This document shows, one piece after another, positions 3,990 to 62,339 of a DNA stretch of 64,000 bases. Every line of letters starts with the position of its first letter. Position 1 is the first letter of the stretch. The notes beneath the pieces are model-generated. The model was not told the DNA's origin. It searched no databases and saw nothing but the letters and a program-made list of their open reading frames with translations. A program made the position numbers and the translations under genes. Origin of the DNA: Verrucomicrobiota bacterium (GTDB lineage: Bacteria > Verrucomicrobiota > Kiritimatiellia > CAIQIC01); assembly GCA_004321905.1 (NCBI GenBank), contig SCQF01000046.1:25614-89613 (forward strand). Direction: 5' to 3'.

Positions 3990-5397
3990 AAAATTCCTTC
4001 GCCCAAAACGCTATTTTTTCAACATCGCCCGCGCCCACAACCAGCAGCGCGTCGCCGGGTTGCAAAAATCCGCGCAAATAATTCCATGCGGCTTCCAAAG
4101 ATGCAACCTCTCGCGGCCGTAGGCCACCACTTTGTTCAAAATGCCGCGCCAAATCAGCGCTCGTGCCACCCGCCAGTGGCGGCTCCGAGGCTGCATAAAC
4201 CGGCGTGAGCACCACCTCGTCCACGCCGACAAATGCGCCGGGAAAATCCGCGCCCAGCGCCCGCGTCCGCGTGTAGCGATGCGGCTGAAACACCGCCACC
4301 ACCCGCCGCCGCCCCAGTCCGCGCGCCGCCGCGACCAGCGCGCAGATTTCCGTGGGATGATGCGCGTAGTCGGAAATCACCAAAATGTCTGCGGCGTCGC
4401 TGACGATCTCGAAACGCCGACGCGCCGGCGAGAAGCTTTCCAAGCCTTGGAAAAGTGCGGTGACCGGTTTTCCAAGTCTTGGAAAAAGTTCCAGTCCGAC
4501 GGCGCACGCCGCTAGCGCATTCAAAATATTATGCCGCCCCGGCACCGGCAGTCGCACGCGCCCAAGTTTTTCGCCGCGCCACAGCACATCGAAGCTGCTG
4601 GCGAGCGCCGCAAGTTCGATATGCTCGGCGCGCAATTCCGCAGCGGACGAAAACCCAAAAGATAAACCGGTGTTGCCCAACGCCGCGGCGCGTGGATCAT
4701 CGGCACAAAAAATCAGGCGCCGCGCCTGGCGCGCAAATCGGCGGAAACAATCAAACAACTCGCCCTCGCCGTAAAAATGTTCCATATGGTCGAACTCGAT
4801 ATTCGTGATGACGGCGATGTCCGGCGCGTAGAGCGCGAGCGTGCCATCGCTCTCATCGGCCTCGACCACTACGGTGGTACCCTGCCCTACGCCCGCCACG
4901 CCGCCGAGCGCCTCCACCACGCCGCCGATGGCGAAGGCGGGATCGTGTCCGGTCGCCTTGAGCAGTTGCGCGATCATCGCGGTGGTGGTGGTCTTGCCGT
5001 GCGTACCGGCGACGGCGATCGAAAGCGGGAATTCACGAAGCAATGCAGCCAGCACGACGCCGCGCGCGAGCACCGGGAGACCACGCGATGTCGCAGCTTG
5101 CACTTCGGCGGTATCCGCGGCCACCGCCGGCGTACGCACCAGCCAGGCGATGTCCGCCGTTACATGTTCCGTATCCTGGCCAAAATGAACGGTGATACTG
5201 TGGCTCAGCAGCCAGTCGGTGATCCGCGTTGGCGCGACGTCGCAGCCGGAAACTATAAAGCCGCGCGCGGCCAGCAGCCGCGCCAAGCCGGCCATGCCGA
5301 TGCCACCGATGCCAATGAAGTGCACGGCACTCGGATCGCGTTCCAGCAGCCCCCGCGCCGCCGCCAAGTCGCGTTCCAGTTGACTGAAGTCAGGCAT
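3973..5397 (-). CDS. murC: UDP-N-acetylmuramate--L-alanine ligase MurC (carries an in-frame palindromic-element insertion)
   Basis: Mur ligase motifs (HFIGIGGIGMAGLA, DYAHHPTEI). Start set at MPDFSQLER to give a short overlap with murG. The segment LFPRLGKPVTALFQGLESF is encoded by the dispersed palindromic pair at 4437-4487. Confidence 0.9.
   Translation of the reverse strand: MPDFSQLERDLAAARGLLERDPSAVHFIGIGGIGMAGLARLLAARGFIVSGCDVAPTRITDWLLSHSITVHFGQDTEHVTADIAWLVRTPAVAADTAEVQAATSRGLPVLARGVVLAALLREFPLSIAVAGTHGKTTTTAMIAQLLKATGHDPAFAIGGVVEALGGVAGVGQGTTVVVEADESDGTLALYAPDIAVITNIEFDHMEHFYGEGELFDCFRRFARQARRLIFCADDPRAAALGNTGLSFGFSSAAELRAEHIELAALASSFDVLWRGEKLGRVRLPVPGRHNILNALAACAVGLELFPRLGKPVTALFQGLESFSPARRRFEIVSDAADILVISDYAHHPTEICALVAAARGLGRRRVVAVFQPHRYTRTRALGADFPGAFVGVDEVVLTPVYAASEPPLAGGTSADLARHFEQSGGLRPREVASLEAAWNYLRGFLQPGDALLVVGAGDVEKIAFWAKEFYGEKV
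4437..4487. repeat. Paired palindromic dispersed element, in-frame inside murC
   Basis: tttccaagccttggaaaag-N12-ttttccaagtcttggaaaaa. Confidence 0.9.
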
Positions 5398-6511
5398 GGT
5401 CACGCCCGGTTTTTTCCACGAGCCCGGCCAGCGCCTCCGCACCGCAACATTCGCGGTGCGCGTGACCCACGGCGCTCATGCTCGCGAGTTTTTCGCGCGC
5501 CCGATAACGCGCGGCGAGATAATCGGCCAACCACGCCGCTGAAAGATTTTTTTCGGAAACATAATCAGCGGCGCCCAGCCGCGACATAGCCTGCGCGTTC
5601 GCAAGCTGATGATTGGCAGCCGCAAAAGGATACGGCACGAGCAGCGCAGGCACGCCGAAGGCCAGTAATTCCGCGCAGGTCGAAGCACCGGAGCGACACA
5701 CCGCCAGATCGGTCGCCGCATAAAGCTCCGCCATCTGCGTGGTGAAAGCGTGGACGGTATGCGGCACGGCGGCCCGTTCATACGTGGCGCGAATTTCGGT
5801 CTCGTCCGCTGGTCCCGTGAGGTGAATGACCTGAATGGGCACGCCGTCCGCGCGGAGCGCCAGCAAGGCTTCCGACGCGACTTCGTTCAGAGAATGCGCG
5901 CCGCGACTACCGCCCAGCACCATGACCGTGAAACGCTCCGCCGTGGTCACGCGCTGAAAATTGCGACTGGCCACTTCCAACTCGCGGCGCAACGGCATAC
6001 CGGTGATCACCAAGCGACCGTGCGGCAGATAAAACCGCGACGCTTCAAAACTGGCCGCCACCGCGCGCGCCCAGCGCGAAAACAGCCGGATCGTGCGTCC
6101 CGGCACAACATTGGCCTCGTGCAACACCACCGGAACATGGCCGCGCAACGCGGCGTAAATTGGGCCGACGGACGCATAACTGCCCATCGCCAGCAGAACA
6201 TCCGGCGGCTGTGTACGCATTTTTTTTCGGCACACACGCATCGCCCGCAGCAGACTCCACACCGCGGGGATGAAACGCAGCGAGAACCTTGTCGGCAAAC
6301 CCTGCGCGGGGATCGTCACCACCGTACCCGACCAACCGCTGACCGCCGCCGATTCCACATCTTTGCCGGCCAGCCAGAGCGTCACCGTGTGCCCGCTGGC
6401 GCGGAGCACTTCCGCCGTCGCCAAGCCGGGGAAAATATGACCGCCGGTGCCGCCACAGGCCAACGCGATGTGCAGCGGCGCGGAACTCGTTGGATGATTG
6501 TTGGCGTTCAT
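5390..6511 (-). CDS. murG: UDP-N-acetylglucosamine--N-acetylmuramyl-(pentapeptide) pyrophosphoryl-undecaprenol GlcNAc transferase MurG
   Basis: MNANNHPTSSAPLHIALACGGTGGHIFP... (G-loop). The true start is the internal Met at 6509-6511; the longer ORF upstream only reads through a palindromic repeat. Confidence 0.9.
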   Translation of the reverse strand: MNANNHPTSSAPLHIALACGGTGGHIFPGLATAEVLRASGHTVTLWLAGKDVESAAVSGWSGTVVTIPAQGLPTRFSLRFIPAVWSLLRAMRVCRKKMRTQPPDVLLAMGSYASVGPIYAALRGHVPVVLHEANVVPGRTIRLFSRWARAVAASFEASRFYLPHGRLVITGMPLRRELEVASRNFQRVTTAERFTVMVLGGSRGAHSLNEVASEALLALRADGVPIQVIHLTGPADETEIRATYERAAVPHTVHAFTTQMAELYAATDLAVCRSGASTCAELLAFGVPALLVPYPFAAANHQLANAQAMSRLGAADYVSEKNLSAAWLADYLAARYRAREKLASMSAVGHAHRECCGAEALAGLVEKTGRDHA

Positions 6512-7071
6512 GGTGATGCGCTGTTTCCAAGCCTTGGAAAACGTCCCGACCGGTTTTTCCAAGGCTTGGAAACAGCGCGCTCCTTGGTCAGCAAAAACCG
6601 CTTCCACTCCACACCGGCGGAAAATCCGCCGAGTTTTCCGCCCGCAGCGACGACACGATGGCACGGGATAAAAAGCGGCAGCGGATTCACGCCACACGCC
6701 GTGCCCACTGCCCGCGCCGCGCGCGGCGCGCCGATGCGGCGGGCCAGTTCGCCGTACGTGACCGTGACACCCCGCGGAATTTTCTGCAACGCGGTGAGCA
6801 CGCGGGCGGTAAACGCGGTGCGCGCAGCGGGTTTGAGCGGCGGCAACGTGGAGGGTTCCCGACCACGCAACCAGACGCGGAGGCAGCGTTCGGCTTGGCG
6901 CAGAACGACACAATCCGCCGGTGTTGGGCAGTGTAGGCGGACGGTTGTCACGCGCAGCGCCAAGTGGCCCCGCGGCACCGGCAACGTGCAGCTCGTCAGC
7001 GCACCGGCCTGGGCCTGTACACCGATGACGCCCCACGTAGTGACAAGGTCGAGCCGGGACGATGCAGTCAT
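6508..7071 (-). CDS. ogt: Methylated-DNA--protein-cysteine methyltransferase (Ogt/Ada C-terminal domain family)
   Basis: PCHRVV active-site motif with the surrounding HTH. The C-terminal tail (KPWKNRSGRFPRLG) is read through the palindromic element at 6524-6572. Confidence 0.75.
   Translation of the reverse strand: MTASSRLDLVTTWGVIGVQAQAGALTSCTLPVPRGHLALRVTTVRLHCPTPADCVVLRQAERCLRVWLRGREPSTLPPLKPAARTAFTARVLTALQKIPRGVTVTYGELARRIGAPRAARAVGTACGVNPLPLFIPCHRVVAAGGKLGGFSAGVEWKRFLLTKERAVSKPWKNRSGRFPRLGNSASP
6524..6572. repeat. Paired palindromic dispersed element (ogt 3' end / murG upstream)
   Basis: tttccaagccttggaaaa-N12-tttttccaaggcttggaaa. Confidence 0.9.
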
Positions 7072-7072
7072 G

Positions 7073-7495
7073 TTAGTGGAAGATCAGCCGAAAAACGATG
7101 AAGCCGAGAACCAGAGCCCCAAGCAGCAAAGCGATGGCCCGATTACGTTGAATGTTGCGTTCGCGCCCCAACGTCGGCGGGCCAAAAAAACGGGTGCTGG
7201 AAAAATAGCGCGCAAACCGGTCGTCGTTGGAAACGGGGATACGGCGGTCTTGCCCAGCCAGCGTGGCCTCGGCGGTCGGCGCCGGCTCGGCCAGCGCCGG
7301 TGTCGGTGGAACTGGCGGCGTGGTACGGAGGCGTGGCGCAACGGGCCGCGTTGTGGGCGGCAGATAGGGGCGCTCCATCAAACGCTCGGGTTTTTTGAGC
7401 GCGCGCTCCAGCCGTTTGATTTCGGCGCGCAATTCGGCGCTGCTATCTTCCACGTCGTGCAAGCGCCGCTCAATCAAATTCTTGGCAATACGCAT
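7073..7495 (-). CDS. Hypothetical coiled-coil, Pro-rich, C-terminally membrane-anchored protein
   Basis: ORF 7073..7606. Start chosen at MRIAKNLIERR to avoid overlapping the upstream gene. Coiled-coil N-terminus, PT-rich linker, C-terminal hydrophobic helix. Confidence 0.45.
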   Translation of the reverse strand: MRIAKNLIERRLHDVEDSSAELRAEIKRLERALKKPERLMERPYLPPTTRPVAPRLRTTPPVPPTPALAEPAPTAEATLAGQDRRIPVSNDDRFARYFSSTRFFGPPTLGRERNIQRNRAIALLLGALVLGFIVFRLIFH

Positions 7496-7509
7496 AGGCC
7501 GGCCACCGT

Positions 7510-8265
7510 TCAGGGCATATGACTGTGCCAGAAGAGAATCACGCCCGTCAGCACCAGCAGCACAACGATCAGCGGCAGCGTGATGGCAAGGCCGACCATG
7601 AGCCAATCGCCGAAACCTTTTTCCAGCTCCTCCGCCACGTGCCGGCCCTCCTCAAAAATCACCGCCGGATGCGCCGCCGCGCTCGACGGTGTTTTGGCGT
7701 CGCCGCTGACCGCATCAATTTTGGCAACCGCCTTGTTATATTCGATGCGGACATCGTCCACGAGCGTGGCCGCTTTGTTGAGTTCATCGCGGAACGAATC
7801 TTCCGGCCAGGTCTCCTCGTCAATAGCCTGCACGTCGCCCAACATGGCTTTGAAGCGTTTACGCGTGGCGCTGAGCAGTTCCGCCAAGCGATTGGCCTGA
7901 ATTTCCTCTTTCTCCAGCGTGACCAGACTTTGGTTGAGCCGATCCGACATTTCCCGCTTGCCGCGCTGATAATCCTCCTGCCGCTTGCGCAAATCCTCCA
8001 AATCCTTTCGCTGTAGGTCAAGGTCTTCCTGGCGTTTGCGCAGCTTCTCAAGTTCCTCCATCGCGCCGGCCACCTTGGAATCCAATTCCTGTTTATGCTT
8101 GGTCATGCGCGTGATGGTGAAATCCGAAACCGACCGAACGGGCACGCCATCCGCGCCCGCACCTTCGCTGCCGACCTTGGTGAGATCATCCGCCGCCAGC
8201 TTGGCGCGCCGCTCAGCCTCTTGGGCGCGATTCAAATCGTCATCAAAAAAATCCCGGTTTGCCAT
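7510..8265 (-). CDS. Hypothetical coiled-coil protein with C-terminal TM anchor
   Basis: 251 aa; charged heptad-like repeats (LEKLRKRQEDLDLQRKDLEDLRKRQ) and a C-terminal TM helix; no recognisable catalytic motif. Confidence 0.5.
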   Translation of the reverse strand: MANRDFFDDDLNRAQEAERRAKLAADDLTKVGSEGAGADGVPVRSVSDFTITRMTKHKQELDSKVAGAMEELEKLRKRQEDLDLQRKDLEDLRKRQEDYQRGKREMSDRLNQSLVTLEKEEIQANRLAELLSATRKRFKAMLGDVQAIDEETWPEDSFRDELNKAATLVDDVRIEYNKAVAKIDAVSGDAKTPSSAAAHPAVIFEEGRHVAEELEKGFGDWLMVGLAITLPLIVVLLVLTGVILFWHSHMP

Positions 8266-9088: not shown

Positions 9089-9137
9089 CTCCAAGGGTTG
9101 GGAAAAGTGAACGTGCGGTTTTCCAAGCCTTGGAAAA
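9089..9137. repeat. Paired palindromic dispersed element (first unit degenerate)
   Basis: ctccaagggttgggaaaag-N10-ggttttccaagccttggaaaa. Confidence 0.85.
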
Positions 9138-12100: not shown

Positions 12101-12511
12101 GGCGGTCAAACGCGGCAGAGCACCGCTGTCGCCCAAACGCACGACACCCTGCGCATCCACCAGCAGCACGTGGGTATATTTTTCGGCGCGCTGCACCGAC
12201 CGCAACCAGTACAGCAGGTCGTTTCGGCGTTGCATCTCGGCGGGATTGCCCAGAAATGTTTGGACCGAACGGATCAACTGCCGATCGCTCACGAGCAGGC
12301 CGGCATCACCCAGACGCTCTTCCCGCCAACGGACGATCTGCCGCACCTTCAGCTCGGCAATCGCCGTCAATTGCTGATAAATTTTCCCGCGCACCTCGGC
12401 TTGCTGCCGGCGAAAAAAGAAAAACGCACTCCCCAACGATGCGAGTGCGATGAAAGCGAAAACCGCCAGCGGCGCCCAAATCGATCTTCGCTGTTTATCG
12501 TTTACGGTCAT
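9143..12511 (-). CDS. Hybrid sensor histidine kinase / response regulator with periplasmic sensor, multiple PAS domains, HisKA-HATPase and C-terminal REC
   Basis: TM-flanked N-terminal sensor, several PAS-like blocks, H-box ([16 protein letters not shown]), G-boxes (DTGTGM...GTGLGL), C-terminal receiver ([11 protein letters not shown]...D). Start set at MTVNDK. Confidence 0.85.
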
Positions 12512-12585: not shown

Positions 12586-12634
12586 TTTCCAAGCCTTGGA
12601 AAAGTCCAGCCTCGGTTTTTCCAAGGCTTGGAAA
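12586..12634. repeat. Paired palindromic dispersed element (2 x TTTCCAAG[G/C]CTTGGAAA, 14-nt spacer)
   Basis: ctttccaagccttggaaaag-N-tttttccaaggcttggaaa; member of the ~20-copy family. Confidence 0.9.
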
Positions 12635-13956: not shown

Positions 13957-14012
13957 GGCAGTTGCTTGAAGTTTCTGCAGCATAGATTATGATTTTTCGC
14001 GCTGCGGGTAAA

Positions 14013-15831: not shown

Positions 15832-15908
15832 GTGCCTGTAGCTCAACTGGATAGAGCGTTGGCCTCCGAAGCCAAAGGTTGTGGGTTCAACTCCCGCCAG
15901 GCACACCA
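15832..15908 (+). tRNA. tRNA-Arg (anticodon CCG)
   Basis: Hand-folded: acceptor GUGCCUG/CAGGCAC, D-arm GCUC...GAGC, anticodon stem UUGGC/GCCAA, loop CUCCGAA, T-arm GUGGG-UUCAACU-CCCGC, encoded CCA. 77 nt. Confidence 0.88.
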
Positions 15909-15922
15909 AACGAGCATACGTT

Positions 15923-16177: not shown

Positions 16178-16204
16178 CAGAGCGCCCCGGCTACCGTAGC
16201 CGGG

Positions 16205-16239: not shown

Positions 16240-16240
16240 G

Positions 16241-16291
16241 TTTTCCAAGGCTTGGAAAATTGAAACGACGCTTTTTCCAAACCTTGGAAAA
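16241..16291. repeat. Paired palindromic dispersed element
   Basis: gttttccaaggcttggaaaa-N12-tttttccaaaccttggaaaag. Confidence 0.9.
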
Positions 16292-19300: not shown

Positions 19301-19912
19301 CCGCCGTTGCGCCGCTATCCCGCACTACTGGAATTCGCCTTCGGTTCCGGCCAAGGTTGCGAGAAGTCCGCCGTGACGTTCGTCCATCCCGATGATCCCG
19401 TCAGCCGCTTGCGCGTCCACGGCAAGTTGGATCGCGTGGACTTGCTGGCCGATGACGACGGCGTCATCCGCGCGATGACGGTTGTGGACTACAAGGGCGT
19501 GAGCAAGAGCGGACTCCAAGCGGAAGAGCTGGCCGCAGAAATCATCGCCGCCCGTAATTGCCAATTGCCGGTCTATGGCCTCGTTGCACAGGCGACCTTC
19601 GGCGATGACCTCCCGTTGCTCTTGCAATATCTGCCGTATCGCGGCGACTTCAGCGAAATCCTCAAGCAAACGCCAAAGCGCTGGATCGCGCTCACCGGCG
19701 AACCGGTGGACTCCACCACGCTCGCCGAATTGATCGGCACACCGCAAACGCCCCTGATGGCGGCTTTCGCGCGGCGTATTTTCCAATGCTTGGAAATTCT
19801 TGAGCACGGTGATTTCCGTGCCGCGCCGCAAGCATGCGAACACTGTGAATTCCGCGGCTGCTGCCGTTACACCGCACCGGCGCTGGAAGGCGAAACAGAA
19901 GAAGGAGCGTAG
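16322..19912 (+). CDS. addB: AddB-like helicase-nuclease subunit (inactive-helicase-like N-terminal region, C-terminal PD-(D/E)XK nuclease with Fe-S cysteines)
   Basis: 1196 aa upstream of a UvrD-type helicase-nuclease. Nuclease motifs: ATCPYKYYLQ, DYKGVSK, and the terminal Cys cluster CEHCEFRGCC (CxxCx4C). No Walker A found. Contains the in-frame heptamer array at 17461-17530. Confidence 0.72.
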   Translation: MTGRRSESVLVVHPTSLALRQLQRRTLTHVGFFDARGHITFAGLLNSCAEAARQAGLLAGRRSASDLDYEMLLLETAQQFRAKSAAQQGPLAALAQQALEDTLDQLIAFLAPLADRIADALAILARGTPKNRALATLYQEFQAAANAMDVSTEADENAAILRLLRGDCTAWPAVLHEATAVRFVAVRAITPMLESVSHALVGKPGGTQVQIEHILEEHEQEWWGEKFLAGSCRLLFGTESAAEDAACHAAQTWSVVTSLREAYAMRDPGLAAEARTNVGFSCSAGLYGEVEDLARRICWELEQPDAHLRPEEIALVVPNVGQYADAIADVFQRFQLPYHFRRGNAVLAAPVTQAILRLLEVRATRSRDAFCALLESPWLKWERIQETEYRSQKPEVTEQLSAIRYPPSALADSIRRAGIEPEMPEAAVLALRVRNFLLAKRPPATDAQAIGDFAAQVFRLLYDKNSERRPLTKLCNQLISELRQTFGVEGQVRQFLQNSFASDDLTRQAALFNSRALTAVIAQLETLGKHKAETTMTWAELLALLRRVLRNVTVAAGSADESGVWVLNPHDAAGLHFRVTLIAGLNAGRFPALPAPSPVFSDAELRQLREALTALPQTALAPSVARRSQDNLLFLTTLATASERLVFSYQSRDETGEELQPSICFATAWRLAGWPSWEKLPSQPPDPYDRWRLKVAPEIFREFWEAARNGKDLPIWQRKPFHGESFLATRPLALCRAADEARQQAARSLAECRSPAPAGRPADAVSELVARSLTMEAERTRIFTQQALQPNQPPEHGTRFVGSITAQTWQQVRPKPRTIPDFSATELETLATCPYKYYLQRVLHLEALKTNEQEATPLALGSLVHRVMHHALLLLRGDPPPPDAPAVLADIRHGFADLCRPAFAVQTTDHPWRIMVKGPGRPVVQFQPDKTEHYAEFMAAVANAELEAEEQALASMMLGAIEQRGVVRTNLIAGCNNLLRLSLQPAEFDKSMLPPLRRYPALLEFAFGSGQGCEKSAVTFVHPDDPVSRLRVHGKLDRVDLLADDDGVIRAMTVVDYKGVSKSGLQAEELAAEIIAARNCQLPVYGLVAQATFGDDLPLLLQYLPYRGDFSEILKQTPKRWIALTGEPVDSTTLAELIGTPQTPLMAAFARRIFQCLEILEHGDFRAAPQACEHCEFRGCCRYTAPALEGETEEGA
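17461..17530 (+). repeat. Heptamer tandem-repeat array ((NNNNCAG)x6 followed by (CTATCCG)x3), in-frame inside addB
   Basis: gaataCAGgagaCAGaataCAGaagtCAGaagcCAGaggtCAc...ctatccgctatccgctatccg; related to the arrays flanking the four-helix-bundle gene at 31243-31690. Confidence 0.8.
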
Positions 19913-20017: not shown

Positions 20018-23000
20018 ATGAGCGTAACCTTCAAAATCCAATTCAGCGCTTCCGCCGGCACGGGCAAGACCTATCAGGTGACGCAGCTCTATCTCGCCCT
20101 TGTGCTGGGCCACCCCTATCCCAAGGAAGCCGGCGAACTGATCGGAATCGCACCCGGCACGATTCATCCCGGCGGAGAACCGCTGCCATGCGAAAAGATT
20201 CTGATGCTGACCTTCTCGCGTAATGCCGCCGCCGAGTTACGGCAGCGCATCACCGCGGGCATCGAAGAGGCGCGCGCTGACGCGGAAGCCAAGCACAACG
20301 ATGAAATCGCTGCGCGCTGCTGGAATTTGCTGCATCGCCTGCCCGCCGCCGACATCTCCACCATCCACGCCTACGCGCAGCGCCTGGTGGAACAGCACGC
20401 CCTGCGGCTCGGCCTCTCGCCCGCCTTCAGCATCCTCGATGAGGACGCGGCCTCCGATTTACGTCAGGAAATTTTCGAGGCCGCATTGCACGACGCACTG
20501 GAAAACGGCAACGATGCCGACCACGCCACACGGGAGGCGCTCTGTGCCGGGCGCGGCGCAAGCGAAGTTCTCGGCGCGCTGCAAGCGTTACTGCAAAACA
20601 CACGCAGTCTTGGTCTGCGGCTGGAAAACATGGACCTTGCGGGACTGGTCGAGCAGCCCGCGCCGCCAACGCTCGAACGATTGCGCCAGTTACGGACGCA
20701 ACTCGCCACCGCCAACGGCCAGAACAAGCGCGGCAAAGCGCCACAAATTTTAGCTGACTTGGATGGCTTGCTTGCCACTGCGACCATGAATGCCGATATG
20801 GTTGCGCTAGCCGCCCATGTCGCGGAACTGGCCGAAGGACAATGGGGAAAAGATAATCCCGCGCTTTCCGCGACACGCGACGCGTTGCAGCACTTCGGGG
20901 CCTATGCCGAGCACCGCCGCGCCGCCGATGCGCTCCCGCCCTTGCTCCACCTCGTAAAAAGCGCGGCGCAGCGTTACGAAAACGCCAAGCGCGAACGCGC
21001 CGGGCTGGACTTCGACGATCTCCTGCTGCTCGCGCGCGACCTCGTGATGCACCACGCCGAGGCGCTGCCGCCCATCACCGCGATCATCGTGGACGAGGCG
21101 CAGGACAACTCGGCACTGCAAAACGAATTTATCCGCGGACTCCAAGCCGCACGCTCTGCCGCGCTCGCGCTCTGCGGCGATTGGAAGCAGACCATCTACG
21201 CTTGGCGTAACGCCGATCCCCAAGGTTTGGAACGACTCGCCAAGGAAACCAAATTACGCGGCGTACCATTGCGTCAGAGCTTCCGTAGTCAGCAGGGCGT
21301 GCTCGACTGGATCAACGACTTCTGTCGTGGCGTACTCTTTGACGAGGCCTACCGCGCTGACGACGAATTGCTGCCCTGTCCACGCGCACTGGCCACCGAA
21401 CCACCCAACATCGAGCTGCTCCTGCCGGAATGGGAACTGCAACCCGACCCGTTCGAGCCCGTTGGTAGAAAAATGCGGCTGGAACTCTCACCCACCGACT
21501 TGAAGCGGCTGGCCAAAGAAGAAAGTTTTCAAGGTTCGGAAAAACCAGCGAACGGAGTTTCCAAGAATTGGAAAACTGTGCTCGCACAGTCGGAACAAGC
21601 AATCGCGCTGGAAGCACGCGCCCTTGCCCGACGTATCGAACTTCTCACCGCTGGTCCGGCTTCCAGCGCGGCGGTTTCCAAGGTTTGGAAAAATGGTAGC
21701 TGGAGCCAACCGGAGTCGCCGCCGTACCGCCGCCGCGACATTCTGATTTTGCTCAAAGCCACCAGCCGGCAGGAAATTTATGAAGCCGCGCTACGCGAAC
21801 GCGGCATTCCGTACACGACCGACGGTAAAGGGCGCGGCTTCCTGACGCGGCAGGAAGTACAGGACATCGCCAGCCTGCTCTCATGGCTGGCGTTCCGAGA
21901 TGACCTCGTCGCGCTGCTCGCGGTCGCACGCTCGCCGTTCTGCGCGCTTTCCGATGAAGTGCTGGCCGTACTCGCGCAGGGCAGCAACGCCACAAACTTG
22001 GCCATCGCGCTGACCGGCGTGGATACCACCGCCGCGACGGCGCGACTCGCCGAATTGGGCTTGGCTGCGGAAGCGCCGACGTTTGCGCACGCGGTGGAAT
22101 TCTTCCGCCGGATGCGGCTGCTGGCCGGGCGACTCCCACCCGTGGAACTGGTGCGCGAAGCCATCCGGCTGACCGGCTTCGATGCCACACTCGCCGGCTC
22201 GTTCCACGGCGCGCAGCGGCTCGCCAACCTCAAAAAATTGCTCTCGTGGATTGAGACGCACGAACGCAGCGAAGGCCTCGACCTCGCGGGCGTCGCACGC
22301 TGGCTGACCACCGAAATTGAAAATGGCGAGGATCGGCCCGATGCGCCCGTACTCGATCCGCAGGACGACGCCGTACGCATCAACACCGTCCACGCCGCCA
22401 AGGGCCTGACCAGTCCGGTGGTTTGTTTGCCGGACCTGCGGCGTATCCCGGCCCCGGATCAGCAATGGCTTCTGCCCCACCCGACCGCCACGGGCTTGAC
22501 CATTGCGGCCAAGCTGAAAACACGCCAGCCGGACTTGCCCGACGCGCCGGAATGGAATACCAGCGATTTCGAGAATGCCAAGGACGCGGTCAAAACCTCG
22601 CGCACCGCCGAAGACCAGCGGCTCTTTTATGTGGCCGCGACGCGTCCGCGCGATCTGTTGGTATTCTCGGGCGAGAATGCGCATCGCACTGCGACGTGGC
22701 GCGGCGCGCTCAACCACTATCTGCTCGCCGACTCCGAACGCGCGCTGCGCCTGATGACATTGCGCGATTACCGCCAGTTGGAAGAGGAATGGCGCGCGGC
22801 GGGACTGGCCGCACCACGCACCGTACCTGCCGGCGAGATCAGCGCGACGCAACTGGCCGAGCAAACCGCCCTGCCCGAGCGCCCGCCACACCCGGAACTC
22901 TACCGCTATTCGGCCACGCTGCTTGCCAGCGTGCCGACGACCGATGACCCCGCCGCGCTACGGGAATTTATCGAGGAAGATTTGGCTGGGTTGCAAACGC

Positions 23001-23659
23001 CGCACTCCACGCGCCGCGCCGCCGCCACAGAGGATAGCCGCGCGGAGCGTATCACTACCGGCGTACGCGCCCATGCCGCGCTACGCGCCGCGCCGCTCCA
23101 AGACAGTCAACCCGCCACACCGAAGACGGCCACAGCCAGCGCCTTGGCGTGGCTGCGGAAAAACTGCGGCGACCTGCCGCCCGCTCACGTACTGCGCGAA
23201 CTGCCGTTCGTCGCCCGCTTTTCGCACGATGGCGCGGTGGCGCTGGTGGATGGCGCGGCGGATTTGGTTTTCTGGCGCAACGGCGCGTGGCACATCGTGG
23301 ACTATAAATTCACCGAGCAAACACCGGACGAATTGCGGCAGCGCTACGCCTTGCAACTGGCAATCTATGCCGCCGCGCTCTTCACGCCCGATGGGCTGCC
23401 GCGTTTTGCCCACACAACGAATAGCGGCGCCCTCGGAGAGGCCGCTCTACCGAAAAAAGGTAGGGTGCGTTCTCCGAACGCGCCGTCTTTGAAATTGAGC
23501 TTGCTGCGTTGCAGCCGCGATTTCCAATGTTTGGAAATTCCGTTTGCTGATTTTCCAAGCCTTGGGAAAACCGCCGCCGCCGTCATTGCCACCGCCCGCA
23601 TCCTGCGTAAGTTCCAACCAAGTGGAATCAGCACCGATTTTTCAGCCCGGCGGGATTAG
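20018..23659 (+). CDS. addA: AddA/RecB-type ATP-dependent helicase-nuclease (UvrD-like helicase plus C-terminal PD-(D/E)XK nuclease)
   Basis: Walker A (SASAGTGKTY), UvrD helicase motifs, C-terminal nuclease (IVDYKFTEQ...YALQLAIYAAAL). Palindromic-element units are inserted in-frame at 21527-21576 and 21674-21693 (SFQGSEKPANGVSKNWKT, AVSKVWKNG). The C-terminal tail is read through the element at 23521-23570. Confidence 0.85.
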   Translation: MSVTFKIQFSASAGTGKTYQVTQLYLALVLGHPYPKEAGELIGIAPGTIHPGGEPLPCEKILMLTFSRNAAAELRQRITAGIEEARADAEAKHNDEIAARCWNLLHRLPAADISTIHAYAQRLVEQHALRLGLSPAFSILDEDAASDLRQEIFEAALHDALENGNDADHATREALCAGRGASEVLGALQALLQNTRSLGLRLENMDLAGLVEQPAPPTLERLRQLRTQLATANGQNKRGKAPQILADLDGLLATATMNADMVALAAHVAELAEGQWGKDNPALSATRDALQHFGAYAEHRRAADALPPLLHLVKSAAQRYENAKRERAGLDFDDLLLLARDLVMHHAEALPPITAIIVDEAQDNSALQNEFIRGLQAARSAALALCGDWKQTIYAWRNADPQGLERLAKETKLRGVPLRQSFRSQQGVLDWINDFCRGVLFDEAYRADDELLPCPRALATEPPNIELLLPEWELQPDPFEPVGRKMRLELSPTDLKRLAKEESFQGSEKPANGVSKNWKTVLAQSEQAIALEARALARRIELLTAGPASSAAVSKVWKNGSWSQPESPPYRRRDILILLKATSRQEIYEAALRERGIPYTTDGKGRGFLTRQEVQDIASLLSWLAFRDDLVALLAVARSPFCALSDEVLAVLAQGSNATNLAIALTGVDTTAATARLAELGLAAEAPTFAHAVEFFRRMRLLAGRLPPVELVREAIRLTGFDATLAGSFHGAQRLANLKKLLSWIETHERSEGLDLAGVARWLTTEIENGEDRPDAPVLDPQDDAVRINTVHAAKGLTSPVVCLPDLRRIPAPDQQWLLPHPTATGLTIAAKLKTRQPDLPDAPEWNTSDFENAKDAVKTSRTAEDQRLFYVAATRPRDLLVFSGENAHRTATWRGALNHYLLADSERALRLMTLRDYRQLEEEWRAAGLAAPRTVPAGEISATQLAEQTALPERPPHPELYRYSATLLASVPTTDDPAALREFIEEDLAGLQTPHSTRRAAATEDSRAERITTGVRAHAALRAAPLQDSQPATPKTATASALAWLRKNCGDLPPAHVLRELPFVARFSHDGAVALVDGAADLVFWRNGAWHIVDYKFTEQTPDELRQRYALQLAIYAAALFTPDGLPRFAHTTNSGALGEAALPKKGRVRSPNAPSLKLSLLRCSRDFQCLEIPFADFPSLGKTAAAVIATARILRKFQPSGISTDFSARRD
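21527..21576. repeat. Paired palindromic dispersed element (degenerate), in-frame inside addA
   Basis: ttttcaaggttcggaaaaa-N11-gtttccaagaattggaaaac. Confidence 0.8.
21674..21693. repeat. Single palindromic unit, in-frame inside addA
   Basis: gtttccaaggtttggaaaaa. Confidence 0.8.
23521..23570. repeat. Paired palindromic dispersed element at the addA 3' end
   Basis: tttccaatgtttggaaa-N13-ttttccaagccttgggaaaa. Confidence 0.85.
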
Positions 23660-26107: not shown

Positions 26108-26158
26108 CTTTCCAAGGTTTGGAAAATCTGCCGGTTACTTTTTCCAACCCTTGGAAAA
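26108..26158. repeat. Paired palindromic dispersed element
   Basis: ctttccaaggtttggaaaa-N12-tttttccaacccttggaaaa. Confidence 0.9.
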
Positions 26159-29142: not shown

Positions 29143-29189
29143 CTTTCCAAGGTTTGGAAAACCGAAAGCACACTTTTTCCAAGCCTTGC
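29143..29189. repeat. Paired palindromic dispersed element (second unit truncated)
   Basis: ctttccaaggtttggaaaa-N13-tttttccaagccttg. Confidence 0.85.
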
Positions 29190-29240
29190 CCCCCCCACCC
29201 GCTCACGCTGCCGATAACATTCGACGTACGAGTCGCCGGC

Positions 29241-31620: not shown

Positions 31621-32316
31621 TCACCGTTCTCCTCCCGTGTTCTGTATGCTGCCTCCTGTCTGCTGTGTTCTGTTTGCTGCTTCCTTTTTCCCAAACTGAA
31701 ATCTACTTTCTGTCCCCGTCATCAACCGCTGGATATTCGCCTTATGCCGAAAAACCACCAGCAAGCCTAGCAGCGTCAGCACAATCGGCGTGAGCAACTC
31801 TTGTCCACGATATAACCACCACCCCGCCGCTGGCACCACCAGCGCCGCACCCATCGAAGCGAACGAAACGTAACGTGAAGTCAGAAACAAAACCAGCCAG
31901 CCCAACACGCCGACGCCCACCGCCGCCGGTGCGACGCCGATCAACACGCCCGCGCTGGTCGCCACGCCCTTGCCGCCTTTGAATTTGAGATAGACCGGAA
32001 AATTGTGTCCCAAAATCGCGGCGACGCCACAGAGCAGTCCGAAGGAATTTTCCAAGCCTTGGAAAACCGGGATATCCGCTTTTCCCAGCATTGGAAAAAC
32101 CAACACTGGCACGAGGCCTTTCATCGCATCCAACGTGAAGGTGAGGATGCCCCACCCTTTGCCGACGCTACGGAAAACGTTGGTCGCACCGATATTCTTG
32201 CTGCCAACGGTACGGATATCCACGCCCTTGAGTCGTCCGATGAGCAGACCGAACGGAATCGCGCCCACCAGATAAGCGCCCGCCAGCCAGCCAATGAAAT
32301 TGAGCCATGCGTTCAT
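31621..32316 (-). CDS. plsY: Glycerol-3-phosphate acyltransferase PlsY (in-frame palindromic-element insertion)
   Basis: YLVGAIPFGLLIG...ILGHNFPVYLKFKGGKGVATSAGV are PlsY motifs. The loop FPMLGKADIPVFQGLENSFG is encoded by the element at 32048-32099. The C-terminal tail is read through the heptamer array. Confidence 0.85.
   Translation of the reverse strand: MNAWLNFIGWLAGAYLVGAIPFGLLIGRLKGVDIRTVGSKNIGATNVFRSVGKGWGILTFTLDAMKGLVPVLVFPMLGKADIPVFQGLENSFGLLCGVAAILGHNFPVYLKFKGGKGVATSAGVLIGVAPAAVGVGVLGWLVLFLTSRYVSFASMGAALVVPAAGWWLYRGQELLTPIVLTLLGLLVVFRHKANIQRLMTGTESRFQFGKKEAANRTQQTGGSIQNTGGER
31625..31690 (-). repeat. Heptamer array, inverted relative to 31243-31290, at the 5' flank of the four-helix-bundle gene
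   Basis: Plus strand reads CTGTATGCTGCCTCCTGTCTGCTGTGTTCTGTTTGCTGCTTC. The reverse complement is (NNNNCAG)x5 including acaggaggcagcatacagaa, close to acaggagacagaata at 31263-31277. Confidence 0.75.
32048..32099. repeat. Paired palindromic dispersed element, in-frame inside plsY
   Basis: ttttccaagccttggaaaa-N13-ttttcccagcattggaaaaa. Confidence 0.9.
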
Positions 32317-35576: not shown

Positions 35577-35627
35577 TTTTCCAAGGCTTGGAAAATGGAA
35601 AGTGATGTTTTTCCAGACCTTGGAAAA
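35577..35627. repeat. Paired palindromic dispersed element (purA-uppS intergenic)
   Basis: gttttccaaggcttggaaaa-N13-tttttccagaccttggaaaag. Confidence 0.9.
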
Positions 35628-35639
35628 GTTGCCGAAAAC

Positions 35640-42057: not shown

Positions 42058-42107
42058 TTTTCCAGGGCTTGGAAAATTTTTCCGCGCTTTTTCCAAACCT
42101 TGGAAAA
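42058..42107. repeat. Paired palindromic dispersed element
   Basis: ttttccagggcttggaaaa-N11-tttttccaaaccttggaaaa. Confidence 0.9.
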
Positions 42108-43225: not shown

Positions 43226-43279
43226 TTTTCCGAGGCCTGGAAAGCGGATGTTCGTATTTTTCCAAACCTTGGAAAAAAA
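43226..43279. repeat. Paired palindromic dispersed element (first unit degenerate)
   Basis: tttttccgaggcctggaaag-N12-tttttccaaaccttggaaaaaaa. Confidence 0.8.
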
Positions 43280-46826: not shown

Positions 46827-46846
46827 TTTTTCCAAGCCTTGGAAAA
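46827..46846. repeat. Single palindromic unit (between convergent amidase and dus genes)
   Basis: tttttccaagccttggaaaa. Confidence 0.9.
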
Positions 46847-49871: not shown

Positions 49872-51008
49872 TCAAACCAATTCGGCAAAAACACGATCGC
49901 TAATGAACAGGCTGCGCTCTGTCAGGCGCAAGCGTCCGGATTCCAATTCCAACAGCTCCAAAGCAAGCAGGCGCGGCACGGCATCGCCACCGAGGGCCAG
50001 CGCATCGAACCCCGTCTGTTGCCGAAAAACCGCGAGCTCCACGCCATTGAGCAGGCGTAAGCCCACGATCAGTGTTTCACGCGCCTTGGCTTCCGGCGCC
50101 AGTTGTTCCTCAAAATCACAGGGCGACCGCCCGTTCGCGATGCGCCGGCAATACTCGTCCAAATCTTCAATGTTGGATCGCCGCCGCCCGGCCACATGCG
50201 CGTGCGCCGCCGGCCCACAGCCGAAGTACTCGCCACCGCGCCAGTAGTTCAGATTATGCAAACATTCACGGCCCGGTCGCGCAAAGTTGGAAATTTCATA
50301 GTGCTGAAAACCTGCGCTTTTCATTTCGCGGCGGATCGCATGATATTGCTCGGCCTGCACCTCGTCCGGCACCTCGACAACTGCGCCGCGCGCACATTGC
50401 GCCGCCAGCGGCGTATCGGGCTCAACGGTGAGCGCGTAACAAGAGATATGGTCAGGCTGCCACGCCAAGAGCCCATGCAAGTCATTCAACACCGCGTCCG
50501 TTGTTTTGCCCGGTAGCGCGTACATCAAATCCACGCTCACGTTCTCGAACCCCGCCGTGCGGAGCAGTTCAAAACTCATCCGTGCATCGGCGGCGGTATG
50601 GATACGACCCAGCCGCTCCAGCATCGCATCGTCGAGCGTCTGCACGCCAAGCGATGCGCGGTTCATGCCGGACGCCCGCAGCAAGTCCGCCTTCGCCGGC
50701 GTCAGCGTCCCGGGATTTACCTCCACCGTCCATTCGCGCACCGCGGCACGCCGCACCTGTGGACGTAATAGGCCGAGTAAATTTTCCAATTGCCGCTGCG
50801 ACAAGGCCGTCGGTGTGCCGCCGCCGATAAAAAGGGTATCGGGCGCGAAGTTCACGGGCAGGGCTGCGAGTTCCTTTTCCAAGGCTTGGAAAAAGTCGGC
50901 GATCCGTTTTCCAAGGCCTGGAACTTTTGCGGCCAGCGGCAGCGAATAAAAACCGCAATAGACGCATTTGCTTTCGCAAAACGGAATATGGAGATACAGC
51001 CCGGCCAT
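49872..51008 (-). CDS. hemW: Radical-SAM heme chaperone HemW / oxygen-independent coproporphyrinogen-III-oxidase-like protein (in-frame palindromic-element insertion)
   Basis: MAGLYLHIPFCESKCVYCGF radical-SAM CxxxCxxC. The segment AKVPGLGKRIADFFQALEKE is encoded by the element at 50876-50924. Confidence 0.85.
   Translation of the reverse strand: MAGLYLHIPFCESKCVYCGFYSLPLAAKVPGLGKRIADFFQALEKELAALPVNFAPDTLFIGGGTPTALSQRQLENLLGLLRPQVRRAAVREWTVEVNPGTLTPAKADLLRASGMNRASLGVQTLDDAMLERLGRIHTAADARMSFELLRTAGFENVSVDLMYALPGKTTDAVLNDLHGLLAWQPDHISCYALTVEPDTPLAAQCARGAVVEVPDEVQAEQYHAIRREMKSAGFQHYEISNFARPGRECLHNLNYWRGGEYFGCGPAAHAHVAGRRRSNIEDLDEYCRRIANGRSPCDFEEQLAPEAKARETLIVGLRLLNGVELAVFRQQTGFDALALGGDAVPRLLALELLELESGRLRLTERSLFISDRVFAELV
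50876..50924. repeat. Paired palindromic dispersed element, in-frame inside hemW
   Basis: cttttccaaggcttggaaaaa-N12-tttttccaaggcctggaa. Confidence 0.9.
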
Positions 51009-52092: not shown

Positions 52093-52144
52093 TTTTCCAA
52101 TGATTGGAAACATATGAACGACCTTTTTCCAAGCCTTGGAAAAG
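52093..52144. repeat. Paired palindromic dispersed element
   Basis: tttttccaatgattggaaa-N14-tttttccaagccttggaaaag. Confidence 0.9.
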
Positions 52145-53646: not shown

Positions 53647-54237
53647 ATGTCCATCGAAACTAGCCTGAGAATTTTCCCGCCCGACTGGACGCAGCCGATG
53701 CCGCTGCGCGATTTCTTCGGCAACGATCAGCCGATTGAAGTTGATTTGGGTTGCGGCAAGGGTCGCTTTCTTCTCGCACACGCCACGGCGCATCCCAACG
53801 TGAATTTTTTCGGCGTAGACCGGATGCTGCGCCGCATCCGCAAGGTGGACAACAAAGCGCGCCGACAGGCTCTGAGCAACATCCGCCTGATGCGCATGGA
53901 AGCCTACTACGCCACTACCTATTTACTACCGCCGGCCAGCATCGCCACCTACTATATTTTTTTTCCTGACCCGTGGCCGAAGAAACGACACCACGAACAC
54001 CGGCTGTTCAATTCACGCTTCATGGATGCGCTGCACCGCACGCTCACGCCCGGCGGCGGCGTACACTTCGCCACCGACCATCTACCCTACTTCGCGGAAG
54101 TCTGCGCGTTGATTCGCGCCGACCGCCGTTTTGCCGAAATTCCGCCGTTCGTGCCCGAACCCGAAGAGCAGACCGATTTCGAGCGTTATTACATTGGCCG
54201 GACGCCGATTGGCCGGTTTTCCTTTCGGAAAACATAA
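53647..54237 (+). CDS. trmB: tRNA (guanine46-N7)-methyltransferase
   Basis: IEVDLGCGKGRFL...FPDPWPKKRHHEHR are TrmB SAM-MTase motifs. Start set at MSIETS. Confidence 0.88.
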   Translation: MSIETSLRIFPPDWTQPMPLRDFFGNDQPIEVDLGCGKGRFLLAHATAHPNVNFFGVDRMLRRIRKVDNKARRQALSNIRLMRMEAYYATTYLLPPASIATYYIFFPDPWPKKRHHEHRLFNSRFMDALHRTLTPGGGVHFATDHLPYFAEVCALIRADRRFAEIPPFVPEPEEQTDFERYYIGRTPIGRFSFRKT

Positions 54238-54256
54238 TTTTCCAAGGCTTGGAAAC
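54217..54256. repeat. Palindromic element (degenerate unit ttttcctttcggaaaa plus canonical unit)
   Basis: ggttttcctttcggaaaac...ttttccaaggcttggaaac. Confidence 0.7.
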
Positions 54257-56748: not shown

Positions 56749-57738
56749 ATGCTCTTCGGATCATCCAAGTCTGCCACAACTTCCGAAATGCCGACGGAAA
56801 AAATCAAAGTCGGCGTGGTTGGCGTCGGCGCACTCGGCCAACACCATGCGCGGATTTACTCCGAATTGCCGGAAGCCCAACTGGTGGGTGTCTATGACGT
56901 GGATGCCGGGCGTGCGAGTTCCATAGCTCGGAAATTCGGCGTTGCGGTTTTCCAAACCTTGGAAAGCCTGGTCGAGCAGTGCGAGGCTGCGAGCGTCGTG
57001 GTGCCCACCGACCGCCACCGCGAGATCGCCGGACTGCTGCTGGAGCACGGCCTGCACTTGCTCGTGGAAAAGCCGATTGCCGCCACCACCGCCGAGGCCG
57101 AGGCACTCGTTCAGTTGGCCGAGGCGCGTAATCTCATCTTGCAGGTCGGCCATGTCGAACGCTTCAATCCGGTGTTGGGCTTTCTCGATAGCCTGCAAAA
57201 GCCGCCACGCTTCATTGAGGCGCACCGGCTGGCCCCCTACCCTCCCCAGCGCGAAGGTCTCCCGCCGCGCGGCACCGAGGTCAGCGTTGTACTCGACCTG
57301 ATGATCCACGACCTCGAAGTGATTCTGCACCTCGTCCGCTCGCCGGTGAAGGCGATCCACGCCGTCGGCATTCCGGTTTTGAGTCCGACGGAAGACATCG
57401 CCAACGTGCGCTTGGTCTTTGAGAACGGCTGTGTCGCTAACGTCACCGCGAGTCGCATCAGTCCCGAGAAGATGCGGAAGATTCGCACCTTCTTTCCCGA
57501 TTGCTACGTCTCGCTCGATTATCAAGAGCAGAGTGGTCAAATCTACCGCAAGGACGGCGCAAACATCACCCGCGACAAGATTGAGATTGCGCGCGGCGAG
57601 CCGCTCGCCAACGAATTGCGCGCCTTCGTCCGTTGCGTTGCCGAGCGCGGCCAGCCGGTGGTCAGCGGCGCGCACGCCGCGGAGGCCCTCAAACTTGCGG
57701 TCGCCATCATGCACCGTATCCGCGAGGGCGCGTCGTGA
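56749..57738 (+). CDS. Gfo/Idh/MocA-family NAD(P)-dependent oxidoreductase (between lpxI and lpxB)
   Basis: IKVGVVGVGALGQHHARIY Rossmann fold, EKP motif. One palindromic unit is inserted in-frame (GVAVFQTLESLVEQ) at 56947-56966. Confidence 0.85.
   Translation: MLFGSSKSATTSEMPTEKIKVGVVGVGALGQHHARIYSELPEAQLVGVYDVDAGRASSIARKFGVAVFQTLESLVEQCEAASVVVPTDRHREIAGLLLEHGLHLLVEKPIAATTAEAEALVQLAEARNLILQVGHVERFNPVLGFLDSLQKPPRFIEAHRLAPYPPQREGLPPRGTEVSVVLDLMIHDLEVILHLVRSPVKAIHAVGIPVLSPTEDIANVRLVFENGCVANVTASRISPEKMRKIRTFFPDCYVSLDYQEQSGQIYRKDGANITRDKIEIARGEPLANELRAFVRCVAERGQPVVSGAHAAEALKLAVAIMHRIREGAS
56947..56966. repeat. Single palindromic unit, in-frame inside the Gfo/Idh/MocA gene
   Basis: gttttccaaaccttggaaag. 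Confidence 0.85.
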
Positions 57739-62100: not shown

Positions 62101-62161
62101 GCGGGCGGTTCTAACAGAAAGCGGCGCGCGGCAAAAGAAATCTCGCGCAAATTCTGAGAAT

Positions 62162-62236
62162 TGGAGCGAGCGAAGGGAGTTGAACCCTCGACATCGACCT
62201 TGGCAAGGTCGCGCTCTACCACTGAGCTACGCTCGC
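62162..62236 (-). tRNA. tRNA-Gly (anticodon GCC)
   Basis: Hand-folded on the minus strand: acceptor GCGAGCG/CGCUCGC, D-arm GCUC-AGUGGUA-GAGC, anticodon stem CGACC/GGUCG, loop UUGCCAA, T-arm GAGGG-UUCAACU-CCCUU, encoded CCA. Confidence 0.9.
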
Positions 62237-62288
62237 TTCGTGAAAGGCGGGGGAACTATGCCAATTTTTTTATCGGCTGCAAGCCTTC

Positions 62289-62339
62289 TTTTCCAGGGCT
62301 TGGAAAAAGTGATCGTTTCGTTTTCCAAGCCTTGGAAAT
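62289..62339. repeat. Paired palindromic dispersed element
   Basis: cttttccagggcttggaaaaa-N12-gttttccaagccttggaaa. Confidence 0.9.

Follow-up and report, generated by a model that had tools for sequence, protein, structure and literature searches.

A family of short interspersed palindromes in phased arrays, between and within genes, in a Verrucomicrobiota genome and its metagenomic relatives

Why does one short palindrome recur again and again along a stretch of bacterial DNA, between genes as well as across the codons of conserved enzymes? The question is raised by 64,000 nucleotides of contig SCQF01000046.1 (positions 25,614 to 89,613) from a Verrucomicrobiota bacterium, hereafter the window, in which an earlier note, made from the letters alone, had recognised a dispersed family of paired, stop-free palindromic elements and compared them to the Rickettsia palindromic elements (RPEs). 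Comparison with related DNA shows that the constraint is on the DNA sequence of each half-site of the palindrome, and not on the encoded peptide or on base-pairing. The units are inherited at orthologous sites, where their conservation exceeds that of the surroundings. Substitutions on compatible codons create and remove them in place, and their arrays change in steps of about 32 bp, while one lineage has copied whole composites of 83 and 115 bp to many intergenic sites. We favour, with somewhat less than even confidence, an interpretation as a lineage-specific family of short interspersed palindromes in a freshwater clade of uncultured Kiritimatiellia-like bacteria of the Planctomycetes-Verrucomicrobia-Chlamydiae (PVC) group, recognised by a putative protein and similar to repetitive extragenic palindromic sequences (REPs), bacterial interspersed mosaic elements (BIMEs) and REP doublets forming hairpins (REPINs).

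The unit is an odd palindrome of 19 nt, TTTTCCAAG-S-CTTGGAAAA, with arms of 9 nt on either side of one central G or C (9 + 1 + 9); the 9-bp arms of the earlier note stand, its GG/CC centre does not. Half-sites TTTTCCAA and TTGGAAAA surround about three unconstrained central bases. Allowing at most two mismatches, TTTCCAAGSCTTGGAAA has 34 matches in the window, against an expected 0.00; none of 100 dinucleotide-preserving shuffles gave a match. These group into 21 loci, roughly one per 3 kb, found at or adjoining every coordinate of the approximately 20 recurrent loci listed before. Pairing is likewise upheld, with a different count (18 doublets among 21 loci instead of 16 of about 20). Thirteen loci are clean doublets, their units 32 bp apart from start to start in 11 cases and 31 bp in two (23521, 42059); in five the partner at this distance is degenerate (9089, 21527, 29176, 54217, 56918); and three are single units (19780, 21675, 46829). 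In 11 of the 13 clean doublets the two centres differ, and the favoured order, G then C, is identical when read on either strand. As had been stated, the unit lacks stop codons in all six frames; its peptides are FSK[A/P]WK, FP[R/S]LGK and FQ[G/A]LE. Since the window has about 59% G+C, the unit forms an A/T-rich island in it, and it uses AT-ending codons, contrary to the codon bias of the genome.

The loci are evenly distributed. Between 4437 and 62338 their mean spacing is 2.9 kb with a coefficient of variation (CV) of 0.49, compared to 0.93 for random positions (P = 0.0004), and they are also more even than random intergenic sites (P = 0.004), a statistic that refers to this one window. Long genes (addA-like, addB-like) hold internal units where no intergenic site is available.

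Gene context was derived from a codon-usage gene model, Pfam and ARAGORN, with Pfam applied to the 10 proteins overlapping elements. Eight of the 21 loci lie inside Pfam-supported genes, namely murC, an addB-like gene, an addA-like gene (three loci), plsY, a hemW-like gene and a GnnA-like gene of the Gfo/Idh/MocA family. The remaining loci are intergenic, many of them 0–10 bp past stop codons, and occur between tandem, convergent and divergent genes, which agrees with the mixture of coding and boundary positions first described. An apparent coding placement at the 5' ends of murG and uppS is an artefact. The stop-free units let open reading frame (ORF) calls from the first start run through, so that both N-termini are over-long and a spurious plus-strand ORF of 590 aa appears opposite murG (5390-7522, 35559-35640).

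A unit inside a gene is not necessarily an inserted one. The earlier note had proposed in-frame insertion of the RPE kind and had pointed to orthologous loci as the place to look for it; there, growth in length is seen at murC only. The interdomain site of murC holds 0, 2, 3 or 5 units depending on the orthologue, and orthologues with 2–5 units are longer by 4 to 35 residues, with the units read in all three frames (FQGLEK, FSKDWK, FPSLGK). These arrays thus do grow by modules of about 32 bp. Even here native sequence takes part: MurC of the window has only 4 residues more than E. coli MurC, its 'LFQGLESF' aligns with the native 'ILRALESF', and the last murC unit overlaps native 'RALE(N/S)F'. 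The nearest MurC proteins among species representatives, from Verrucomicrobiota, Lentisphaerales and Kiritimatiellia metagenome-assembled genomes, are 50–54% identical and their loci are without the motif. Metagenomic relatives are 68–76% identical, and two of their contigs carry it, L081 (65% GC) and L083 (57% GC), while the L085/L086 lineage has 0 units in 7.6 kb. The neighbouring doublet at 6524 has an orthologous doublet in L083 and none in L081 or L085.

At three or more other coding loci the units are not insertions but lie over native codons, which contradicts the insertion model for them. The region of the GnnA-like doublet aligns without gaps to PDB 7bvj and shows 0 gap columns among 120 homologues; its ancestral peptide is VFPTLES, and the spacer encodes native KFGVA. 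The motif-free relative L221 has GTGTTCCCGACCCTGGAAAGC at this site, reading GTG TTC CCG ACC CTG GAA AGC; the sequence is TTTCCCAACTTTGGAAA in the motif-bearing L222 and TTTCCAAACCTTGGAAA in the window, where Q replaces P. This codon comparison indicates that the unit was made in place by synonymous changes to A/T-ending codons and one P→Q replacement. Compared to NocN, the HemW-like protein is one residue longer at its doublet, and 'FFQALEKEL' lies on a native Y..AL..E helix. At the aminotransferase start, the related contig L139 is of equal length and has FPILDS for FPSLGK and the half-site TTTTCCAAT only. Thus 0–1 residues were added at these three loci, and none at plsY within the clade. 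For intergenic loci, the relatives at 76–84% nucleotide identity are too rearranged for empty-site comparisons, and the usable comparisons came from coding sites. At the 42059 site, the related contig L113 has no units in place and a three-unit array about 290 bp further on.

The plsY doublet is the oldest copy found. The 17-residue segment FPxLGK-x6-FQxLE is found, always at this length, in all relatives down to 59% identity, and in L216, L217, L218 and L219 the DNA still forms two units 32 bp apart. (L219 is GCA_023953695.1, whose contig prefix JAMLJG01 matches Kiritimatiellia bacterium isolate ACE_NR_VERR3.) In L216, with 66% GC and a PlsY 59% identical to that of the window, TTTCCAATCATTGGAAA occurs twice in two reading frames, the half-sites being kept both times as TTTCCAAT-C-ATTGGAAA. 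Identical 17-mers in two frames, against a strong bias to G and C at third codon positions, cannot be explained by selection at the protein level. These distant genomes have 0–1 other copies per 20 kb.

Among genomes that are 76–86% identical at the DNA level, orthologous units are 94% identical compared to 79% for their flanks. The HemW-like doublet in L139 (76% nucleotide identity) illustrates the pattern, with near-perfect units and a diverged spacer and flanks. The family can also disappear. L221 (GROS21 SAMEA9560845 scaffold_201, 1-20990; 65% GC) has 0 units in 21 kb, yet its GnnA is 88% identical, the ydjM-lpxI-gnnA-lpxB order is syntenic, and it keeps a decayed half-site TTTTCCAAGC…GGGAAA at the position of window unit 54239, which suggests that its lineage recently lost the whole family. 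In L219, an intergenic doublet at 13967-14015 has changed outer bases (CTTCCAAGCCTTGGAAG, GTTCCAAGGCTTGGAAC); it may represent a lineage 'dialect'.

The motif is no local oddity, a doubt the earlier note had raised itself. Pairs of perfect units at a distance of 32 bp occur on at least 120 metagenome contigs, most of which, by their names, derive from the hypolimnion of Trout Bog Lake and other freshwater sets. Motif-bearing DNA of 745 kb contains 591 units, with 86 arrays of two units, 78 of three, 36 of four and 3 of five. The basic entity is not the doublet, as taken before, but an array of one to five units with a period of 32 bp: 321 of 362 intervals measure 32 bp, 37 measure 31 bp and 4 measure 30 bp. 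Density in the window and the relatives is 0.5–0.8 units per kb. Across the whole data set the centres combine as 34 GC, 15 CG, 18 CC and 17 GG, and the preference for opposite centres (49 of 86) is weaker than in the window. In the 745-kb set, conservation of the arms reaches 95–100%, C and G share the centre at 47/53, and the two positions beside it vary; these loci were seeded by perfect units, which inflates the conservation of the seed, and the unseeded window shows the same pattern. Compensatory Watson-Crick pairs number 0 among about 130 arm changes, which argues for constraint on the sequence of each half-site and not on pairing.

The fixed length of the spacer is thus borne out, and in the window its sequence appears to vary as freely as had been claimed; in the relatives it does not. 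There the spacers form families, with 931 pairs identical at 10 or more of 13 positions despite unrelated flanks, against about 23 in a shuffled control that destroys position-specific composition. Four-unit arrays of the Trout Bog relatives are copies of a dyad-symmetric composite of 115 bp, U1 (AAGsATT) – cGGGAACcgc.ggT – U2 – AgtTCAc.gtgAac – U3 – Acc.gcGGTTCCCg – U4 (AATsCTT), and three-unit arrays follow the scheme U–S1–U–rc(S1)–U over 83 bp. Such composites were copied to many unrelated intergenic sites, and for these relatives the initial judgement that a miniature inverted-repeat transposable element (MITE) with a conserved body does not fit was wrong. The composite consensus folds as one 56-bp stem. 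Terminal units carry a variant on their inward side: in the Trout Bog contigs (L087-L206) the first has AAGsATT and the last AATsCTT, and in the window the corresponding forms are AAGGTTT and AAACCTT. Conservation of the arrays ends at the outer units. Beyond these we found no flank complementarity, no target-site duplication (TSD) of 2–8 bp above expectation and no target consensus, and a classical MITE was rejected on these grounds, a conserved body being confined to the Trout Bog composites. Of the two-unit arrays, 8 of 80 are embedded in coding-like sequence; the figures are 2 of 68 for three units and 0 of 33 for four. Array length follows n×32−13, of which 51 and 147 bp are divisible by three, and this fits the observation that coding arrays are mostly two-unit ones.

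Two further observations concern genes near the arrays. Sulfatases are the largest gene family in motif-bearing loci, and one of them (L091, 2640-4283) has a doublet, FPRLGK…FQGLEK, exactly between the twin-arginine signal peptide and the mature domain.

Units that lie between genes as well as over ordinary codons indicate that the cells preserve the DNA sequence itself, and what is preserved is probably a docking site for a putative protein. The two half-sites, the loose centre and the 32-bp phasing, about three helical turns, make a dimeric, cooperative DNA-binding protein the simplest mechanism. A conserved sequence-specific protein would bind each unit as a dimer, with cooperation between dimers on the same face of the helix. 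That a dimeric protein recognises the elements had been suggested before, and this idea accords with constraint on both half-sites, a loose centre and the lack of compensatory pairs. Candidates might be a domesticated enzyme of the HUH or REP-associated tyrosine transposase (RAYT) type, or a nucleoid or architectural protein. The units would be held at consensus by what this protein does or by selection for its binding, with the family expanding in some lineages and decaying in others. The patchy distribution, with L221 and L085 lacking units, is consistent with gain or loss of such a cognate factor.

The closest architectural analogue is the REPIN/BIME class, and not the RPEs. REPs and REPINs are extragenic, with an asymmetric 5' tetranucleotide and compensatory changes in their hairpins, and the absence of TSDs is typical of HUH-type elements. 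As in REP, BIME and REPIN families, short palindromic units occur at hundreds to thousands of copies, as doublets and clusters at fixed distances; they are found just past stops and between convergent genes, without TSDs, and show long vertical persistence with lineage-specific population sizes. The inverted doublets and hairpins that define a REPIN are present, with the dominant 32-bp interval noted above and stems of 18–22 bp. REPINs likewise possess conserved palindromic arms around a spacer whose length matters most, more than its sequence, and long hairpins are predicted for them as single-stranded DNA or RNA (PMC3116915). Unlike REPINs, the present unit is fully symmetric without a GTAG-type 5' tail, keeps a strict 32-bp period, shows no compensatory changes and is written over native codons, and its host is a PVC-group bacterium, not a member of the Enterobacteria or Pseudomonas. 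A REPIN system also has a cognate single-copy RAYT gene (a Y1 HUH transposase), which the repeats usually flank. Because the family departs from the REPIN pattern in extragenic position and compensation, and no RAYT was found in the 938 kb searched, we regard the family as working like that class without filing it as a member.

RPEs are likewise palindromic repeats translated within unrelated housekeeping proteins (PMC10969869). They measure about 100–150 bp, with a conserved body, and are inserted as extra peptide segments, unlike the coding copies here, which are mostly 51-bp doublets with a native spacer. Two other repeat families share single traits with the present one. The cyanobacterial highly iterated palindrome HIP1 has 8–10 bp, is over-represented in coding and non-coding DNA of one clade and has no known mobile carrier; the likeness lies in clade-wide over-representation, and HIP1 is neither phased nor arrayed, in contrast to units of 19 bp with a 32-bp period and composites. 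The neisserial dRS3 repeats and Neisseria intergenic mosaic elements (NIMEs) are short repeats with inverted-repeat ends (ATTCCC-N8-GGGAAT) that alternate with other sequence at hundreds of intergenic copies. This alternation is shared; NIME spacers are repeat segments of 50–150 bp, and dRS3 is an integration target of phages or IS110-type elements and, unlike our units, is not written into codons.

Several points weigh against the REPIN-like interpretation. With eight of 21 loci in genes the extragenic rule is broken, and full symmetry and the lack of compensation are equally foreign to it. Transposition predicts neither that units arise in place, from native codons and around a native spacer, nor that loci are evenly spaced. 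No RayT homologue was detected among the ORFs of 938 kb of motif-bearing DNA with a phmmer search using the single, distant query E. coli RayT on genome fragments, and all-against-all clustering of 3376 ORFs yielded no multi-copy transposase-like family, the largest real families being sulfatases and sensor kinases. Spacer similarity in the Trout Bog arrays might in part reflect shared preference and not descent.

Origin in place and even spacing fit drive or selection acting on each site, as in uptake sequences, and our main rival explanation is therefore molecular drive of this kind, which we consider rather unlikely. The palindrome would be the preferred sequence of a receptor associated with DNA uptake or recombination, and better matches would be preferentially transmitted by transformation and accumulate wherever tolerated. 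Two observations are what such drive would leave: native codons became units through synonymous changes and mild replacements, with no indels, and they did so where the peptide already resembles FQxLE or FPxLGK (murC 'RALESF', HemW-like 'Y..AL..E', GnnA 'FPTLES'). The same applies to the density and even spacing of the loci and to a motif kept across diverged relatives, lost in some and conserved above its flanks. Viral contigs are free of units beyond chance: 2.9 million of them hold 9 isolated single units, about the chance number by a rough estimate, and give no link to phages. Uptake signal sequences (USS) of Pasteurellaceae and DNA uptake sequences (DUS) of Neisseriaceae reach a comparable density, occupy coding DNA in several frames and form frequent inverted pairs at gene ends, and those in coding regions behave similarly to the units described here (PMC2817400). 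In the present family, as in USS and DUS, copies arise in place by substitution where the peptide tolerates it, in coding and non-coding DNA, are evenly spaced, often stand as inverted pairs at the ends of genes, and are conserved among related species.

Against this, the known uptake sequences are asymmetric 9–12-mers, without phased arrays or copied 83- and 115-bp composites, whereas the present unit is a 19-bp palindrome in phased arrays of up to five with ordered spacers, and the murC arrays grow through insertion of modules of about 32 bp. Competence has no known case in this phylum. The units use AT-ending codons against the bias, while USS reading frames correlate with preferred codons (PMC2817400). 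Drive of the uptake kind thus best explains the codon origin, the even spacing and the conservation, but not the phased arrays or the ordered composites.

A selfish mobile element of the RPE or MITE kind, as envisaged in the earlier note, would insert in frame and between genes and then decay. RPEs provide a documented precedent for in-frame palindromic elements (PMC10969869). The copied composites at unrelated intergenic sites of the Trout Bog relatives, the variable number of modules with extra peptide at murC and the predominance in coding regions of two-unit arrays, whose length is a multiple of three, all point in this direction. We nevertheless find this explanation improbable, as the GnnA-like, HemW-like and aminotransferase loci show no insertion. 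Through about 40% protein divergence plsY has retained its doublet at the DNA level, and orthologous units outconserve their flanks, both the opposite of neutral decay, and no TSD, terminal inverted repeat beyond the units, target motif or transposase was found.

The doublet hairpin might alternatively act at the RNA level as a 3'-end stabiliser, processing site or terminator, as has been proposed for REPs after stops. Doublets indeed fold as hairpins of 18–22 bp, with −14 to −25 kcal/mol as DNA and −21 to −40 kcal/mol as RNA (RNA z −3.3 to −9.3), and many of them immediately follow stop codons. Such a role is nonetheless very unlikely. Changes are neither compensatory nor wobble-preserving, and on the transcribed strand the frequent variants produce C·A mismatches. 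The mirrored spacers of one array are less complementary than permuted ones (4.6 vs 5.3, 5.1 vs 6.0), as if long perfect palindromes were avoided. Eight loci lie inside ORFs and some copies in divergent promoter regions, no Rfam family matches, and the lack of a U-tract 3' of the hairpin leaves it without terminator polarity. An intrinsic terminator, which has a GC-rich stem ahead of a U-tract, was rejected in particular: the stems here are A/T-rich, preceded by T and followed by A runs, no 3' U-tract is present, and copies occur in ORFs and promoter regions.

Least credible is an operator of an ordinary transcription factor or a segregation or occlusion site of the parS or Noc-binding (NBS) type. 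The unit is a palindromic site of the dimer type and is scarce in outgroup genomes, with about 1 copy per 14–20 kb at most. For parS as well, an intragenic position and conservation at the DNA level are possible, and the pattern TTTCC…GGAAA is reminiscent of the Noc-binding site, ATTTCCCGGGAAAT. At the density of the window, however (21 loci per 64 kb, or roughly one in 3 kb), a genome assumed to measure a few Mb would hold more than 1000 loci, many more than any regulon or any set of parS, NBS or SlmA-binding (SBS) sites comprises. The loci lie mostly 3' of or inside genes, not solely upstream as an operator would, a case the earlier note had named as fatal to its own model; array number varies among close relatives; and the odd 19-bp palindrome differs from the even 16-bp palindromes of parS and NBS, which number tens per genome and are bound by a ParB-family protein. 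On anatomy, these operator and parS/NBS readings were rejected together with the intrinsic terminator and a CRISPR array, the latter because CRISPR loci are long arrays with unique spacers, a leader and cas genes, and the present arrays have 1–5 units at dispersed sites including ORFs, with 13-nt spacers that are native coding sequence or fall into families.

The family appears undescribed, as had been supposed. A gathering-threshold Rfam scan of the window returned only five tRNAs, an E-value scan around 16.2 kb gave sub-threshold noise, and a literature search for the 11–15-mer found only unrelated primer or miRNA matches.

The window loci are compiled in the table. One of them borders on a separate structure: the last 34 nt of tRNA-Arg(CCG), AAGGTTGTGGGTTCAACTCCCGCCAGGCACACCA (15875-15908), are directly repeated at 16204-16237 and flank a GIY-YIG-like ORF (15923-16177), so that 15832-16241 looks like a cassette of about 330 bp integrated at the tRNA 3' end. 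The doublet at 16242 directly adjoins it. ARAGORN and Rfam call only the first, complete tRNA, and a tmRNA at 15.9–16.24 kb was rejected, the sequence in question being the duplicated 3' end of tRNA-Arg.

Table. Palindromic units of the window, with positions and gene context.
Element	Positions	Context
Doublet	4437..4485	Inside murC (3973-5403, minus), codons ~320-336, FPRLGK…FQGLES, between Mur_ligase_M and Mur_ligase_C
Doublet	6524..6572	Between Ogt-like gene and murG, just 5' of the murG N-terminal domain (Glyco_transf_28 begins at residue 190 of the long ORF)
Doublet, first unit degenerate	9089..9136	6 bp 3' of histidine-kinase stop (gene 9143-12436, minus)
Doublet	12586..12634	Divergent intergenic, histidine-kinase start to tRNA-Ala; long hairpin, DNA dG -19.4
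Doublet	16242..16290	55 bp 5' of AddB-like gene, immediately past duplicated tRNA-Arg 3' end
Single unit	19780..19796	Inside AddB-like gene, codons ~1153-1159, IFQCLEI, in PD-(D/E)XK domain
Doublet, first unit degenerate	21527..21574	Inside AddA-like gene, SFQGSEK…VSKNWK
Single unit	21675..21691	Inside AddA-like gene, VSKVWK
Doublet, 31-bp spacing	23521..23568	C-terminal part of AddA-like gene, FQCLEI…FPSLGK
Doublet	26109..26157	1 bp past rhamnosidase stop, 28 bp ahead of glgB start; tandem genes, minus
Doublet, second unit half-degenerate	29144..29192	Between tandem minus-strand genes
Doublet	32049..32097	Inside plsY, FPMLGK…FQGLEN
Doublet	35578..35626	Between purA stop and uppS start
Doublet, 31-bp spacing	42059..42106	1 bp past ahcY stop
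Doublet	43227..43275	Between convergent genes, 27 and 10 bp from their stops
Single unit	46829..46845	Between convergent genes, 7 and 8 bp from their stops
Doublet	50876..50924	Inside HemW-like radical-SAM gene, VPGLGK…FFQALEK, just past CxxxCxxC motif
Doublet	52094..52142	Start of class-IV aminotransferase gene; second unit encodes FPSLGK
Doublet, first unit degenerate	54217..54255	Overlaps trmB stop
Doublet, first unit degenerate	56918..56965	Inside GnnA-like Gfo/Idh/MocA gene, SSIARKF…VFQTLES, over native residues
Doublet	62290..62338	0 bp past tail-specific protease stop (gene 62339-, minus), 53 bp from tRNA-Gly

It is conceivable, if doubtful, that the palindromes are no mobile insertions but are 'written' into the DNA where they stand, at regular distances and across essential codons too, by some directional process that depends on a single recognition protein. 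The writing could proceed by uptake-signal-like drive, or by templated conversion through single-stranded DNA copies of the unit. A system of this kind, if real, would be the first outside Proteobacteria to accumulate a motif genome-wide, and the first whose signal is phased, palindromic and multi-unit.

To our knowledge, REPs, BIMEs, REPINs and uptake sequences are known almost only from Proteobacteria, and their origin and upkeep are debated. The present family in an uncultured PVC lineage joins REPIN-like traits (doublets and arrays, copied composites) with traits of uptake signal sequences (creation in place, even spacing, conservation), which is an unusual blend. Its mechanism can be tested, since close relatives that have or lack the family are available, 88–91% identical in one protein, and since the family abounds in the Trout Bog Lake metagenomes. 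Questions that become approachable are which gene co-occurs with the motif, whether the units spread by transposition, slippage or biased recombination, and how much protein sequence space is consumed by a signal at the DNA level. In practical terms, the units distort gene calling and equip essential enzymes, MurC among them, with variable peptide modules.

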